From positions 1 to 54,258 of IMG/VR virus record IMGVR_UViG_3300012000_000021: a stretch of 54,258 nt of DNA. The stretch is one strand, 5' to 3'. The translations under genes were made by a program, and so were the position numbers. Below the pieces are notes generated by a model. The model searched no databases. It was given only the letters and a program-made list of their open reading frames with translations, and was not told the DNA's origin. This stretch comes from a virus (Duplodnaviria; Caudoviricetes). Within the stretch, counting starts at the first letter, position 1; every line of letters begins with the position of its first letter. This document shows positions 28,443-34,799 of this stretch, in pieces.

Positions 28443-28632
28443 AATTAAATACTCCTTCTGGGTCGTAGACAACTAATGCTGATGCAACTAACTTCGCACT
28501 CATTGCTCGTCCATGATGACCACAGAAATACAATTCACCATTTGCAAGTGTTGCTCGCACTAGCGCTTGTGCTCCGCATTTGTCGCAACGATCAAGTGCT
28601 GACATAGCCTCATGCGTAGTGGTAGTTGTCAT
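28432..28632 (-). CDS. actinobacterial-type small zinc-binding protein
   Basis: LDRCDKCGAQA...GELYFCGHH motif. Confidence 0.75.
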   Translation of the reverse strand: MTTTTTHEAMSALDRCDKCGAQALVRATLANGELYFCGHHGRAMSAKLVASALVVYDPEGVFNYGR

Positions 28633-28805
28633 TAAAAGAACCCTGGCTTTGCTATGGGTGTGTTGGCACCAGGTGCGTACTTGTTCTGTTCACCAGAAAT
28701 CTTTGGAAGTTGTTTTTCATCAAATTTTGAACTTCTTGGCATAGCACCAGCCATAGTGATGCTTCTTTGTGGTGAGAACTGCGCCATAGAAAGGTTCTGG
28801 TTCAT
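28632..28805 (-). CDS. small protein with NLSxxQF leader (not in the ORF track)
   Basis: Own translation MNQNLSMAQFSPQRSITMAGAMPRSSKFDEKQLPKISGEQNKYAPGANTPIAKPGFF. TAATG coupling to the next gene. Confidence 0.7.
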   Translation of the reverse strand: MNQNLSMAQFSPQRSITMAGAMPRSSKFDEKQLPKISGEQNKYAPGANTPIAKPGFF

Positions 28806-28854
28806 GTTCCTATTTTGCCCCCTTTATCGGTCTGTGTAAGGACATAATACCTGT

Positions 28855-28968
28855 ATGGATGATGCCGCCTACATTGCAAAGTTTTCTTGTAGTATATGCG
28901 GCAAACGATACGTAGTAATGACTCTTGCAAGAGATTGCGAAGACGATCACATAGACGGAGAAGATTAA
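28855..28968 (+). CDS. tiny zinc-finger protein (leaderless)
   Basis: MDDAAYIAKFSCSICGKRYVVMTLARDCEDDHIDGED. CATAAT lies 6 nt upstream; TAATG coupling. Confidence 0.6.
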   Translation: MDDAAYIAKFSCSICGKRYVVMTLARDCEDDHIDGED

Positions 28969-29144
28969 TGCCTAGATACGAGTACTCATGCATTCAGTGC
29001 GATTTAGATTACGAAAAAGAGCGTAGCATCACTGAGGCAGATCCTGGTTATCACTGCGACAAGTGCGGCTACGCTCTTCAGCGTGTCTTTAATTCTTTTG
29101 GCCTCTCCTTTAAAGGTGGAGGCTTCTACTCAACTAGAGACTAG
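28968..29144 (+). CDS. FmdB-family zinc ribbon protein
   Basis: MPRYEYSCxxC...CxxCG..LQRVF....LSFKGGGFYSTRD. Confidence 0.85.
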   Translation: MPRYEYSCIQCDLDYEKERSITEADPGYHCDKCGYALQRVFNSFGLSFKGGGFYSTRD

Positions 29145-29482
29145 TTGTAGTTTGGATCGTCTTCTTTAGCAGGTGCAGCCTTTGCTGCTTTGTCTGCTGC
29201 TTGACGTTCTTCAACTTCTACATCTGCCACAGTCTTTGCACCTTTGTCAACGGTTGAAAATGCTGCGTTGATTTCGTCGAGAGTTAGTTTTCCATCGTCC
29301 ATAAAAGCACGAGCCAACTTCTCGATAACTGCTGCAACTGCAGTAAGGCCTGCGACTGTTACCGCCTTGATAGTTGAGATACCAGCAATAGCACCAGCAC
29401 CGATTACTGAAAGACCGCTTGCTGCAAATACTGCAACAATACGCATCAATACGTTGTTTAAACTTTTCATAAGACTATTCAT
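29141..29482 (-). CDS. two-TM membrane protein
   Basis: Hydrophobic helices followed by DDGKLTLDEINAAF. Confidence 0.75.
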   Translation of the reverse strand: MNSLMKSLNNVLMRIVAVFAASGLSVIGAGAIAGISTIKAVTVAGLTAVAAVIEKLARAFMDDGKLTLDEINAAFSTVDKGAKTVADVEVEERQAADKAAKAAPAKEDDPNYN

Positions 29483-29521
29483 ACCTGTTCTCGTTTCCCC
29501 CTCAGGATGTAAGTTTTATTA

Positions 29522-29785
29522 TCAGTCTTGCTGGATGCCCATACGTTCTAAATACAGTTCTTTTTCACTCATTAGGTACTCTTCAATGCGCTTGTACTGT
29601 ATTTGGGTCTGTTCTTGGGTTGCTTGAATCTGTTCTTCTGTCATCTCTTTATTTAAATCCTTAAAAGTTTCTACGGCCAGATCTAAGTTAGTCTTGGCCA
29701 GTGCTGCCTTGAGTTGTGCCTGTTTCCAGCAGTACTCGGCATGATCGGTTTTTCTTTGCAAACGCTTGTCTTGTGTTTTTGACAT
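29522..29785 (-). CDS. coiled-coil hypothetical protein
   Basis: Start MSKTQDK at 29785, with TATACT 7 nt upstream. Confidence 0.7.
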   Translation of the reverse strand: MSKTQDKRLQRKTDHAEYCWKQAQLKAALAKTNLDLAVETFKDLNKEMTEEQIQATQEQTQIQYKRIEEYLMSEKELYLERMGIQQD

Positions 29786-29798
29786 AAGGCTAAGTATA

Positions 29799-32578: not shown

Positions 32579-32597
32579 GCCCAGACCCTATCACAGG

Positions 32598-32984
32598 TTA
32601 TTCTTCGTCTTCGGGCTCTGCCTTACGTGGTGGGACGTTGCCACCTACCTTGCGTGCCCACGCATCTCCCTTATCGGTTCTAAAGGTTGAGTGTTGTGGC
32701 GACTTGATCCCAGTGTCAGATGCAAGTTTAGTTGCCTTCTCGTACATAGAGGTCGCAACACCGAGACCCTGCATGCGCCCGATCACGTTGATGTTGTCAA
32801 TCTGACCACTTCGCTTGTTCCAGTCCATATGACCTAGATAAGAGCCTTCTGAGTCACGAGCCTCCATAGTATGAATCTTTGGGTGCTGCTTAGGTGCTCC
32901 AGGATGGATGTACTGGAACTGAACGCCCGACAGATTTCTTGGCTCTGATGGATCGTGATCTGGTTCTCTAGGCGTCTGCTTCAT
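32598..32984 (-). CDS. GNAT-family acetyltransferase with NLSGVQF leader
   Basis: INVIGRMQGLGVATSMY is GNAT motif A. Confidence 0.75.
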   Translation of the reverse strand: MKQTPREPDHDPSEPRNLSGVQFQYIHPGAPKQHPKIHTMEARDSEGSYLGHMDWNKRSGQIDNINVIGRMQGLGVATSMYEKATKLASDTGIKSPQHSTFRTDKGDAWARKVGGNVPPRKAEPEDEE

Positions 32985-33355
32985 TAGAACCCTTCCCTAA
33001 AGTTGCCGTTTTCATCCCATTCGCCATTATCGGCATCACCTGCAGTGCGATCACCGTGCTCATCGCTTGCACCAAACTTCTCGTAGAGATGCTCTGAGGC
33101 AGGACCTATACGGTTTTGCCAATGGATGTCCTTGTCAGGGTATGAATCATACACGTGCTTCATGACATTTTGAGCGTGACCCTTGCCCTCTTCGTGACTC
33201 TTAAGCCAGTTTACATAGACGGCTTCATCGCCTTTTGGATGATGGATGTCAGCGTATGCGACAACATTGCCAGTCTTGTCATGTAACTGATGACTAGTAG
33301 TCTCTTTGTCTAGAGGCTTAGTGGTGAACTTAAACTGCTGTGGATTAAGATTCAT
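32984..33355 (-). CDS. GNAT-family acetyltransferase with NLNPQQF leader
   Basis: VNWLKSHEEGKGHAQNVM resembles motif A. Confidence 0.65.
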   Translation of the reverse strand: MNLNPQQFKFTTKPLDKETTSHQLHDKTGNVVAYADIHHPKGDEAVYVNWLKSHEEGKGHAQNVMKHVYDSYPDKDIHWQNRIGPASEHLYEKFGASDEHGDRTAGDADNGEWDENGNFREGF

Positions 33356-33618
33356 TTACGCTTCTTTGGTGTGAAATGCTCATGCTCGTGCCCGACCTCA
33401 AATTTTCCGTCCTCATGCATACGCATGTGCATCTTGTGGTGCTGTGCGTAATCATAGGTCGAAATGCCATCACCGCCGAATGATTTTCCATTCGCAGGCC
33501 CGCGACCTTTTATGTGCCACTTCAATATATGCCATCCAATTGCGTGGCCCTCTTGATCAGGTACCCATCGCTTCTTAGGAGCATCACCAAACTGTGCATT
33601 GTTAAGATTCTCTGGCAT
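33352..33618 (-). CDS. His-rich protein with NLNNAQF leader
   Basis: 88 aa with many His residues; ATGA coupling. Confidence 0.7.
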   Translation of the reverse strand: MPENLNNAQFGDAPKKRWVPDQEGHAIGWHILKWHIKGRGPANGKSFGGDGISTYDYAQHHKMHMRMHEDGKFEVGHEHEHFTPKKRK

Positions 33619-33620
33619 GA

Positions 33621-33722
33621 CTACCTCGCTTCACAGATGCACTTGCAGGTGTCTATTGTACAGCAGCCGTACTTCATGTCATGGTCACATAGACGACATT
33701 GCTCTTTACTTGGGGCGCTCAT
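33621..33722 (-). CDS. tiny Cys-rich protein
   Basis: MSAPSKEQCRLCDHDMKYGCCTIDTCKCICEAR fills the gap with an ATGA overlap. Confidence 0.55.
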   Translation of the reverse strand: MSAPSKEQCRLCDHDMKYGCCTIDTCKCICEAR

Positions 33723-34117
33723 GTTGTCATCTTCCTTGGAGGATTATACTTACGCATTCTTTCTCTCTTACCAGGATGGACTGTGGTAATTGAGTGGACG
33801 TTAACCTTCACATTCTCTTTGAGAGGAATCTCATCTTCTTCTGCATCCATGGCGATGTCGTAACTTTGTAACTTCTCTGGATTCTTTTCTACGGCACGTT
33901 TTGTCGCTGTGGCATGGATAACAGAGTATGGACCCTTGTAAGATGCGCGATGGCTTGCATAGCCTCCTAGACCCTTACCGCTTCCGAAATCCTCTGCTAC
34001 ATCTGGGTTATCTGTCCAATGGACTCCTAGTATGTGCTTCTGTACTCCAGAGGCAGGAACCTGTAATCCACGAAAAATGTGGAACTGCTTAGGAGATAAA
34101 TTATCTTGGGCGCTCAT
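33719..34117 (-). CDS. ADP-ribosyltransferase-like protein (R-S-E type) with NLSPKQF leader
   Basis: IFRGL (strand-1 Arg), VHWTDNPDVAEDF and EEDEI (ExE-like). Confidence 0.6.
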   Translation of the reverse strand: MSAQDNLSPKQFHIFRGLQVPASGVQKHILGVHWTDNPDVAEDFGSGKGLGGYASHRASYKGPYSVIHATATKRAVEKNPEKLQSYDIAMDAEEDEIPLKENVKVNVHSITTVHPGKRERMRKYNPPRKMTT

Positions 34118-34479
34118 TCGTCACTCATCTTCTCTCCACGAGTGACGTAGCGCTTGACGCCCTTTACTCTGAAGCCCTTATCAGAGGTTATAGAGTCCTT
34201 ACTCCACCAAGACATATCTGTCAGTGTCTTGTCAGTCTTTAATGGCTCGACTTCATAGACAGGTGATACCAGAGATTGCTGATGCCATCCCTTTTTATTA
34301 TCTCGTCCTCGGTAACCTGTATTCATACGATCAATGACATGGTCTGCTGCACGCTCTGGATTAGTTCCTGCCCATACGACACGATCATTACCTGGGCGGA
34401 TTATTGTTCCAGGCTTCATCGTCTCTGCGGTAGATCCGTGGAACAACTCTGGAAACTGCTTAGGAGATAGGTTGCTCAT
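34114..34479 (-). CDS. Arr-like (H-Y-E type) ADP-ribosyltransferase with NLSPKQF leader
   Basis: LFHGS..MKPGTIIRPG..VWA.T...A...VYEVEP...FRV. True start is ATG 34479 (ATGA overlap). Confidence 0.65.
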   Translation of the reverse strand: MSNLSPKQFPELFHGSTAETMKPGTIIRPGNDRVVWAGTNPERAADHVIDRMNTGYRGRDNKKGWHQQSLVSPVYEVEPLKTDKTLTDMSWWSKDSITSDKGFRVKGVKRYVTRGEKMSDE

Positions 34480-34799
34480 TTCTTGCTCCGATTGTGTGGA
34501 AGACGTCCACCTACGGACTTTGCCCATGCATCTCCTAGGTCAGTTCTCTCATAGGAGTGTTGAGGTCCTACTTGACCTTTTTCTTGGGCGGTTTGATTTG
34601 CTAGATCCCACATGTGGCTTGCGATACCTTGACGACGAAGTCGTGTGCTTACACTGATGTTCATCACTCTCTTGGAGCGCTTGTTCCAATCCATAGAGCC
34701 GACCATGTTGCCATCTTGGTCATGAGCATCGATGTGGTACATGTACTTGCCCTCATGATGGGTCAGAGATACAAATTGCTGAGGATTGAGGTTGCTCAC
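34476..34799 (-). CDS. GNAT-family acetyltransferase with NLNPQQF leader, paralog of 32598-32984
   Basis: ISVSTRLRRQGIASHMW; shares MDWNKRS and PQHS..RTD.GDAWA..VGG with its paralog. GTGA overlap start. Confidence 0.8.
   Translation of the reverse strand: MSNLNPQQFVSLTHHEGKYMYHIDAHDQDGNMVGSMDWNKRSKRVMNISVSTRLRRQGIASHMWDLANQTAQEKGQVGPQHSYERTDLGDAWAKSVGGRLPHNRSKK

Follow-up and report, generated by a model that had tools for sequence, protein, structure and literature searches.

The IMG/VR record IMGVR_UViG_3300012000_000021, a tailed-phage sequence of 54,258 bases that was analysed at its full length and is referred to here as the window, was found to encode seven small proteins that share one short peptide near their N-termini, NL[SN]xxQF, which we have designated the tag. 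The tag and the set of proteins that carry it (the cargo) are real and so far undescribed; full-text searching of the literature, with supplements outside its reach, found no description of the motif. The tag is probably an address or docking label. We put the probability that it docks separate modules to the interior of the phage head, for packaging and injection with the genome, at about 0.35.

A preliminary description, made from the letters of the window, had named seven genes with this heptapeptide near the N-terminus. Six-frame translation bore this out: NL[SN]xxQF matched exactly seven times, always on the minus strand and 1–22 residues past a stop, compared to a mean of 0.07 matches in 300 mononucleotide shuffles and 0.07 in 300 residue shuffles (maximum 1). 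The codon differences that had been quoted for identical peptides were also real in the window sequence. The statement that the cargo is mostly unrelated was correct in that the seven genes represent six BLAST families, but two of them (34476–34811 and 32598–32984) encode GNATs with 39% identity to each other.

The tagged genes of the window were single-domain open reading frames (ORFs) of 57–137 residues, each with a separate stop and with start and stop codons overlapping; the tagged array (34811–32598, minus strand) held six of them. The first gene (34476–34811) encoded a minimal GNAT (Pfam Acetyltransf_10, E 2.8e-5; 24.5 bits against a cut-off of 23.6) with the tag NLNPQQF at 34773–34793. 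It starts either at the GTG at 34811 or at an internal GTG directly ahead of S-N-L; the internal start, giving M-S-N-L-N, is likely because in a related locus (L004) the tag follows the stop after only 5 codons. The following ORF (34114–34527) most likely starts at the ATG at 34479, so that the gene (34114–34479, tag 34453–34473) begins with MSNLSPKQF. It encoded a predicted Arr-like (H-Y type) ADP-ribosyltransferase (ART), an assignment that rests on Foldseek, where the top matches of its model were rifampin ADP-ribosyltransferase 2hw2 and 9iaf (E 6e-3, prob 1.00, TM 0.50); sequence support was weak (Pfam Arr-ms E 0.18 on a relative, PDB profile search E 0.4–1.9). The third gene (33719–34117; leader MSAQDNLSPKQF, tag 34082–34102) encoded an ART-like protein with an R-G / H-W-T / E-x-E pattern. 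R16, G17, H33, W34, E94 and E96 were invariant in its family (alignment A5), and it had no Pfam, PHROG or PDB sequence match. The cargo therefore includes, as had been described, GNATs (by Pfam) and two types of ART, one Arr-like by Foldseek and the other recognised by its pattern.

The remaining array genes encoded an 88-residue His-rich protein (33352–33618; tag NLNNAQF at 33589–33609) of BLAST family 4, which had 8 members, a 123-residue protein starting MNLNPQQF (32984–33355; tag 33332–33352) and the second GNAT (32598–32984). The His-rich and the 123-residue proteins had no Pfam or PHROG match. ESM Atlas neighbours of the 123-residue protein included viral GNAT clusters at 0.94, a lead by which it is possibly another GNAT. 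The second GNAT had a weak Pfam GNAT match below the cut-off (E 0.047) and a conserved 16-residue Pro-rich leader, so that its tag, NLSGVQF (32916–32936), occupied residues 17–23; this leader-plus-tag form was frequent among the GNAT profile matches. Outside the array, a 57-residue protein of family 5 (28632–28805, minus strand) carried NLSMAQF at 28776–28796, had no family-library match and had tagged counterparts in the related genomes G001 and G002. Pfam and PHROGs returned nothing for most tagged proteins.

Three looser variants had also been proposed, of which one was retained in part. RNLSTQF in a Gly/Ser-rich protein of 136 residues (28062–28472, minus strand) contains the conserved, one-residue-shorter form N-L-S-x-Q-F, which was N-terminal in the G003 orthologue but internal in the window protein when the latter was aligned with its G001, G002 and G003 orthologues. 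For MSNVQF (23834–24202), which is without the L-S core, none of five related genomes had a homologue, and this variant is not supported. ALSAEQF (35687–36181) follows the GHHR motif of its family, was not kept in paralogues and is incidental. The region 27838–28805 of the window and the related genome G003 (L131, 4600–8050) were observed to contain a run of small Gly/Ser/Asn/Gln-rich proteins without a family match. Several of these started with the tag or with the near-variants NLSANQF, SLSSSQF and NLSPQQ-N-W, and they were kept in genomes otherwise poor in tags.

Relatives were collected by a search with one tagged protein and an IMG/VR pattern scan for the commonest form of the tag. This gave 37 loci, of which L019 shared a contig with L006 and L032 with L001. 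In these loci and the window (413 kb), N[LIVM][SNT]xxQF occurred 158 times, and 154 of the 158 occurrences lay no more than 30 residues from the upstream stop, in line with the N-terminal enrichment in relatives that the preliminary description had suggested checking. The extended form of the tag was often M-S-A-x-D-N-L-S-x-x-Q-F. The sequences behind the tag formed 14 BLAST families across the 38 loci: the R-G/H-W-T/E-x-E ART, the Arr-like ART, a further small ART of the H-Y type that matched PARP weakly, GNATs, two GHHR families, the His-rich protein, several families without a match and peptides of 39–57 residues. Family 3 is an ORF of 39–40 residues (the tag plus approximately 31 residues) found between array genes in 16 loci (L002, 5208–5330, and nine more distinct sequences); this ORF may encode a genuine small protein or be what is left of a lost cassette.

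Selection acts on the tag as a peptide. At the fixed positions, Leu was encoded by all six of its codons and Asn, Gln and Phe each by both of theirs among 115 distinct nucleotide contexts, and this mixing of synonymous codons at every fixed position confirmed that conservation is at the protein level. Conservation of the DNA itself, as a recombination site or a start region, was set aside on account of the mixed codons, although a recombination break sits directly behind the tag. This break was seen in an alignment of the window with L004, in which 29–30 of every 30 bases agreed through the upstream gene, the leader and the tag, and only 6–14 of 30 directly after the Phe codon of the tag, where a different ART starts. 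The drop in identity at this point shows that cargo has been exchanged behind a constant tag. Additionally, array order varied from contig to contig, and one family occurred both with and without the tag: its G002 paralogue carried the variant NLSSQQW directly before the conserved start of the family, and the window copy was untagged. The modular arrangement of tag plus cargo that had been suggested is thus borne out by 14 cargo families, mixed codons and a recombination break right after the tag. A 51-residue ORF of G002 (22660–22815, L040) ended in NLSLEQF directly before its stop, which may be a remnant of recombination between tags.

The frequency of the tag was also determined by profile searches, which sampled proteins by homology and not by the motif, although both search profiles contain the tag columns, so that rankings lean to tagged proteins, and the 90% clusters are not independent. 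The ORFs that went into families and alignments A1, A2 and A5 had been picked for the motif, and the invariance of the tag within these is therefore by construction. Among 130 small matches from the exhaustive Arr-like ART profile search (P0002, found earlier, was excluded from this count), 26 had the strict tag, 26 had NLSxx[LM]F, 19 had the Asn replaced and 13 had a form one residue shorter; five started with M-G-R-N-N-x-x-F, 29 had another [QE]F before the catalytic His, and 12 had none of these. The word-based GNAT profile search gave the strict tag in 98 of the 120 clusters listed and LSxx[QLM]F in 13.

Structural models place the tag outside the predicted fold and close to its start. In the AlphaFold model of the 34114–34479 ART, which had a predicted local distance difference test (pLDDT) score of 74.5, residues 1–10 had a mean of 54 and the first strand comprised residues 12–15. 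In that of the 34476–34811 GNAT (pLDDT 85.2), residues 1–6 were below 50, a helical turn was present at residues 6–8 and the first strand began at residue 11. The alignments behind the two models were shallow, with 26 and 21 rows. The Phe of the tag was 0–6 residues ahead of the catalytic His in the tagged small ARTs, and in the LF forms it was the residue directly before that His. The earlier claim that the fold starts after the tag is thus supported by both models, with the LF forms partly merging with the fold, and the possibility that the tag is an integral first strand was not supported by the models. An N-capping box with a hydrophobic staple has been described for a glutathione S-transferase as a hydrophobic residue, Ser, x, x, an acidic or polar residue and a hydrophobic residue (PMC3319563; this and the other articles given by PMC number are cited for the passages concerned). 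Because L-[S/N]-x-x-Q-F has the same layout, the tag probably forms one compact helical turn.

Comparison with longer proteins indicated where the cargo enzymes belong. A word-based search with a single ART sequence found only 7 relatives; the exhaustive profile search found 855, and the best 150 of these included 19 giant proteins of 1011–3995 residues with 2–7 ART stretches each. A local search of the 19 giants with the window profiles A1, A2 and A5 found the Arr-like ART in 19/19, the GNAT in 8/19 and the second ART in 7/19. Profile matches in the giants began after the tag columns; the strict tag was present in 0/19, and one giant held a single loose match. A GHHR motif, which is ParB-like, is all that points to a ParB/Srx-type nuclease identity for families 6 and 13 and for 35687–36181; this assignment was not confirmed, as there was no Pfam match and the local profile had no match in the 19 giants.

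In the account of Iyer et al. (2017), ARTs, GNATs and DdrB-like ParB domains are principal modules of polyvalent proteins, and phage-encoded polyvalent proteins are predicted to be packaged in the capsid and injected (PMC5512222). Judged from the profile matches, the 19 giants are polyvalent proteins in the sense of that article, and, since three enzyme profiles of the window match the giants, its enzymes are by sequence single-module versions of them: an H-Y type ART, an R-S-ExE type ART and a RimI-like GNAT. The two sets share these modules but differ in organisation, since other actinophages and mobile elements have them fused into giant chains. Polyvalent proteins, which are encoded by phages and conjugative elements, chain many modules, with 2 to 15 domains per polypeptide (PMC5512222), whereas the window genes are single-domain, with one gene of approximately 90–140 residues for each module and a tag of its own.

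The window itself is a fragment of a larger genome. Terminase, portal and major capsid genes (PHROG matches) identified it as a tailed phage; its ORFs are open at both ends and its G+C content is approximately 45%. The host is probably an actinobacterium, because its major capsid protein and that of Streptomyces phage BRock are 63% identical. Records with 82–96% identical capsid proteins were 87–98 kb in length, and four of these had terminal repeats and were rated complete, from which a genome of approximately 90–100 kb is expected. Within this capsid lineage, G001 had 5–6 tags, and G002, a close relative, had 3 strict tags plus variants in an array of approximately 20 genes, where homologues carried NLSxxLF, NLGKQF or NLSSQQW. 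G003 and G005 had one tag each, and no tag was found in G006 (complete), G007 (79% complete) or G004, in which the lone DNA-pattern match does not translate to the motif.

The tag pattern was not found in BRock (112 kb), DSL-LC01 (129 kb) or ct2KA10 (39 kb), or in 450 kb of sequence surrounding capsid genes from the same lineage. In the phage collection, megablast of 28000–36500 of the window and tblastn of the Arr-like ART gave no match; the best relative there was BRock, which is without the tag. When 596 Gb of cellular genomes were scanned for the commonest form, 6 stretches were found, of which only one (NLTPKQF) translates to N[LIVM][SNT]xxQF and none to the strict NL[SN]xxQF. Tagged cluster representatives sat on contigs of up to 88–101 kb, which fits a single phage lineage. 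The tag is confined to this lineage of uncultured freshwater actinophages with genomes of approximately 90–100 kb, and the viruses with tagged proteins probably infect dominant freshwater bacteria. Another shared start, M-G-R-N-N-x-x-F, was observed on GNATs and ARTs in G005 (L132, 5763–6532), P0088, P0098, P0137, P0138 and P0154. This sister lineage had one canonical tag only and no HslV-like gene, and M-G-R-N-N-x-x-F may be a second type of tag.

Analysis of the genes around the array revealed a minus-strand string that begins at 36181, adjoining a divergent region. Two untagged genes at its promoter-proximal end (35169–36181), 35687–36181 with the GHHR motif and 35169–35687, neither of them matched by Pfam, are followed by the tagged array, a cupin gene, an endolysin gene, an HslV-like protease gene, genes for small proteins and a gene for a 936-residue protein, and then by the terminase, portal, coiled-coil scaffold candidate, capsid and tail fibre genes. 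The array is upstream of the lysis genes and approximately 12 kb from the terminase gene. A conserved intergenic element inside the array (33619–33718, minus strand) contains a sigma-70-like match (ATGACA, 16 nt, TACAAT; 10/12 positions) that ends 37 nt before the 88-residue gene, ahead of which there is also a Shine-Dalgarno-like GAGG. Approximately 85 nt of the element were near-identical in 7 loci despite a differing upstream gene, and its match was the only one in the window sited just upstream of a gene. The promoter call rests on this conservation and placement, since the scan of the whole window found fewer matches than in shuffles. The array had been described as encoding late proteins, a label that is without support: a divergent region lies beside the array, which heads its gene string and contains this conserved promoter-like element of host type.

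A shared step that acts on the peptide of many unrelated small proteins is called for by these facts, and of the known models the one that fits best is phage T4 with its capsid targeting sequence (CTS). If the tag is a capsid-loading label, polyvalent modules would have been unbundled into separate genes, each of which would then need an address label of its own. The tag would attach each module to a part inside the head under assembly, whether the scaffold, the capsid interior or the portal, and a changeable kit of host-modifying enzymes would be injected with the genome, as the T4 CTS does for internal proteins and Alt, with new cargo gained by recombination directly behind the tag. The binding partner, encapsidation and injection are all steps that we infer from analogy. 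A comparable principle is known from encapsulins, in which a short conserved peptide sends unrelated enzymes into an HK97-fold shell; such cargo-loading peptides are usually C-terminal and bind the shell protein, whereas the tag is N-terminal.

Packaging and injection are proposed by analogy with the T4 CTS (PMC3012670) and with the predicted fate of polyvalent proteins (PMC5512222). The internal proteins of T4 are diverse and share only a CTS (PMC3012670). As with the CTS of IPI–III and Alt, which is short, N-terminal, carried by diverse small proteins at a variable locus, portable and found with ART cargo (PMC3012670), the same N-terminal peptide was found here on unrelated small proteins in a variable cluster (14 families; 154/158 near ORF starts). 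The two systems differ in that the tag belongs to a phage with a BRock-like actinophage capsid, no recognised prohead protease and an array away from the head genes. Delivery in the virion is made plausible by the kinship of the cargo with polyvalent proteins and by the existence of ART–MuF fusions: in Microbacterium phages a VIP2 ART is fused to the MuF minor capsid protein (PMC7302621). Such a fusion likewise lets an actinophage virion carry an ART, but it uses a whole minor capsid domain instead of a peptide of 7–12 residues, and no MuF-like gene was recognised in the window.

Several observations weigh against a capsid-loading role. None of the structural proteins of the window carried the tag in the six-frame scan, and the array is not among the head genes; its setting and promoter-like element fit early expression as well as late. 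Complete genomes with 82–92% identical capsid proteins had no tag (G006) or one (G003, G005), and tagged cargo is therefore not required by the capsid. Some GNATs had the tag behind a conserved leader of 14–18 residues and so not at the extreme N-terminus. Furthermore, the Phe of the tag directly preceded the catalytic His in 26 of the 52 tagged small ARTs, which indicates some structural integration. Co-folding of the capsid protein, the scaffold candidate and a tagged Arr-like ART, each given as an alignment, scored 0.00 in two runs without controls, which speaks neither for nor against the proposed docking.

The tag could instead be a cytoplasmic docking motif that brings the enzymes, made after infection and never packaged, to a shared host hub of transcription, translation or replication or to a phage adaptor. 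We regard this as possible, if somewhat doubtful. In both models the tag is short and lies in a flexible end next to the domain, its restriction to one phage lineage agrees equally with a host-specific and with a phage-specific partner, and the array heads its gene string and holds the host-type promoter-like element. The T4 ARTs ModA and ModB are not packaged, according to the passage concerned in PMC5512222. Tagged proteins of 39–57 residues without a family would, however, be odd for a device that targets enzymes. A clamp-binding motif, as one candidate of this kind, was set aside: in the pentapeptide clamp-binding consensus the polar first residue and the final Phe stand closer together than in the tag.

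A role as a propeptide or degron, by which a protease (the phage HslV-like protein with a host unfoldase, or host Clp) would activate the enzymes or limit their lifetime, was judged unlikely, and the removal of the tag by a protease that the preliminary description had considered possible is without support. An HslV-like N-terminal-nucleophile protease, a candidate processing enzyme by context only, is encoded 2–4 kb downstream of the array (29891–30445, minus strand; phrog_1040 E 2.1e-27, Pfam Proteasome E 1.1e-5). The tag abuts the strand bearing the catalytic His or Arg of the ARTs, and the HslV-like gene was present in the tag-bearing G002 and G003 and absent from the tagless G006 and G007. 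This co-occurrence was nevertheless set aside as evidence, as it is confounded by synteny, the same genomes sharing the whole 24.9–31.4 kb block, and is contradicted by three genomes: G005 had one tagged protein and no HslV-like gene, and DSL-LC01 and ct2KA10 had HslV-like genes but lacked the tag. An unfoldase gene was not seen in the window, and where Phe directly precedes the catalytic His (26/52) a cut behind the Phe would take away some of the first strand and damage the fold.

The tag might also need no partner: it would then be a self-contained helix-start motif by which the N-terminal edge of very small domains is stabilised or kept soluble, or a translation start region that is expressed well, and would have been spread by recombination capture; this, too, seems improbable. 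The layout of an N-capping box with a hydrophobic staple (PMC3319563), the helical turn at residues 6–8 of the GNAT model, the position of the tag, always 0–6 residues ahead of the first strand, and the recombination break right behind the tag would all fit such a role. A generic cap, however, is a motif inside folds and needs neither the Asn before Leu, which is invariant in the tag, nor the M-S-A-x-D leader seen on many unrelated cargoes. The same domains manage without a tag within the giant proteins, the family-less proteins of 39–57 residues retain it, and the mixed codons speak against a start region that acts at the nucleotide level. Finally, an export or toxin-delivery signal, by which ARTs released at lysis would act against eukaryotic grazers as a 'Trojan horse' and the tag would serve uptake or secretion, is very improbable. 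This role has been proposed for ARTs of freshwater phages (PMC6802176), and the array is upstream of the lysis genes, but the tag is without known signal-peptide features or a hydrophobic core and the cargo includes GNATs and short family-less peptides. The ARTs, of approximately 100–130 residues, have no translocation domain, and their relatives are polyvalent modules of phages and plasmids. An N-glycosylation sequon was rejected, as Asn-Leu-Asn forms do not fit.

Returning to the capsid-loading label, a more specific version of it is that this lineage split a giant injected polyvalent protein into shuffling single-domain cassettes, each addressed to the capsid by a peptide of 7–12 residues without a prohead protease. 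We hold this only tentatively; if true, the tag would be a minimal portable encapsidation signal for an HK97-type head. More generally, an encapsidation signal would show how phages beyond the T4 group load changeable sets of host-modifying enzymes, would explain how polyvalent modules can work as separate genes and would make available a very short tag with which foreign proteins could be loaded into phage heads. Whatever its partner, the tag defines a large undescribed set of proteins, with hundreds in public metagenomes, that share a common handling step, and with it the effector genes of these phages can be located by a simple sequence rule.

The head module of the window (14903–18710, minus strand), recognised by PHROG matches for the portal and capsid proteins, comprised the portal gene (16974–18710), a gene for a charged coiled-coil scaffold candidate of 260 residues that is rich in Glu, Lys and Ala and had no family match (16070–16852), and the major capsid gene (14903–16030). 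No prohead protease gene was recognised between the portal and capsid genes in the PHROG and Pfam scans, and Rfam and tRNA scans of the window gave no match. Two collagen-like tail fibre genes, both of them long and with numerous stretches of repeats, were located on the minus strand at 8190–9560 and 9830–12694. In the HslV-like protein a leader of three residues was followed directly by Thr-Thr; genes of this type are common in phages, with 214 records. The 936-residue protein (24990–27800, minus strand) was very acidic and rich in Ala, Thr and Pro, had a hydrophobic, signal-peptide-like start and no family match, and was found besides only in G001 and G002. At the other end of the record (50617–54258, minus strand) there were ribonucleotide reductase genes and a queuine tRNA-ribosyltransferase homologue, the latter reaching the record end. 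An HNH endonuclease gene (36494–37153, plus strand) lay in the divergent region adjoining the array, and an endonuclease-like ORF of 124 residues (37671–38045, minus strand) was found near it; both may be mobile insertions.

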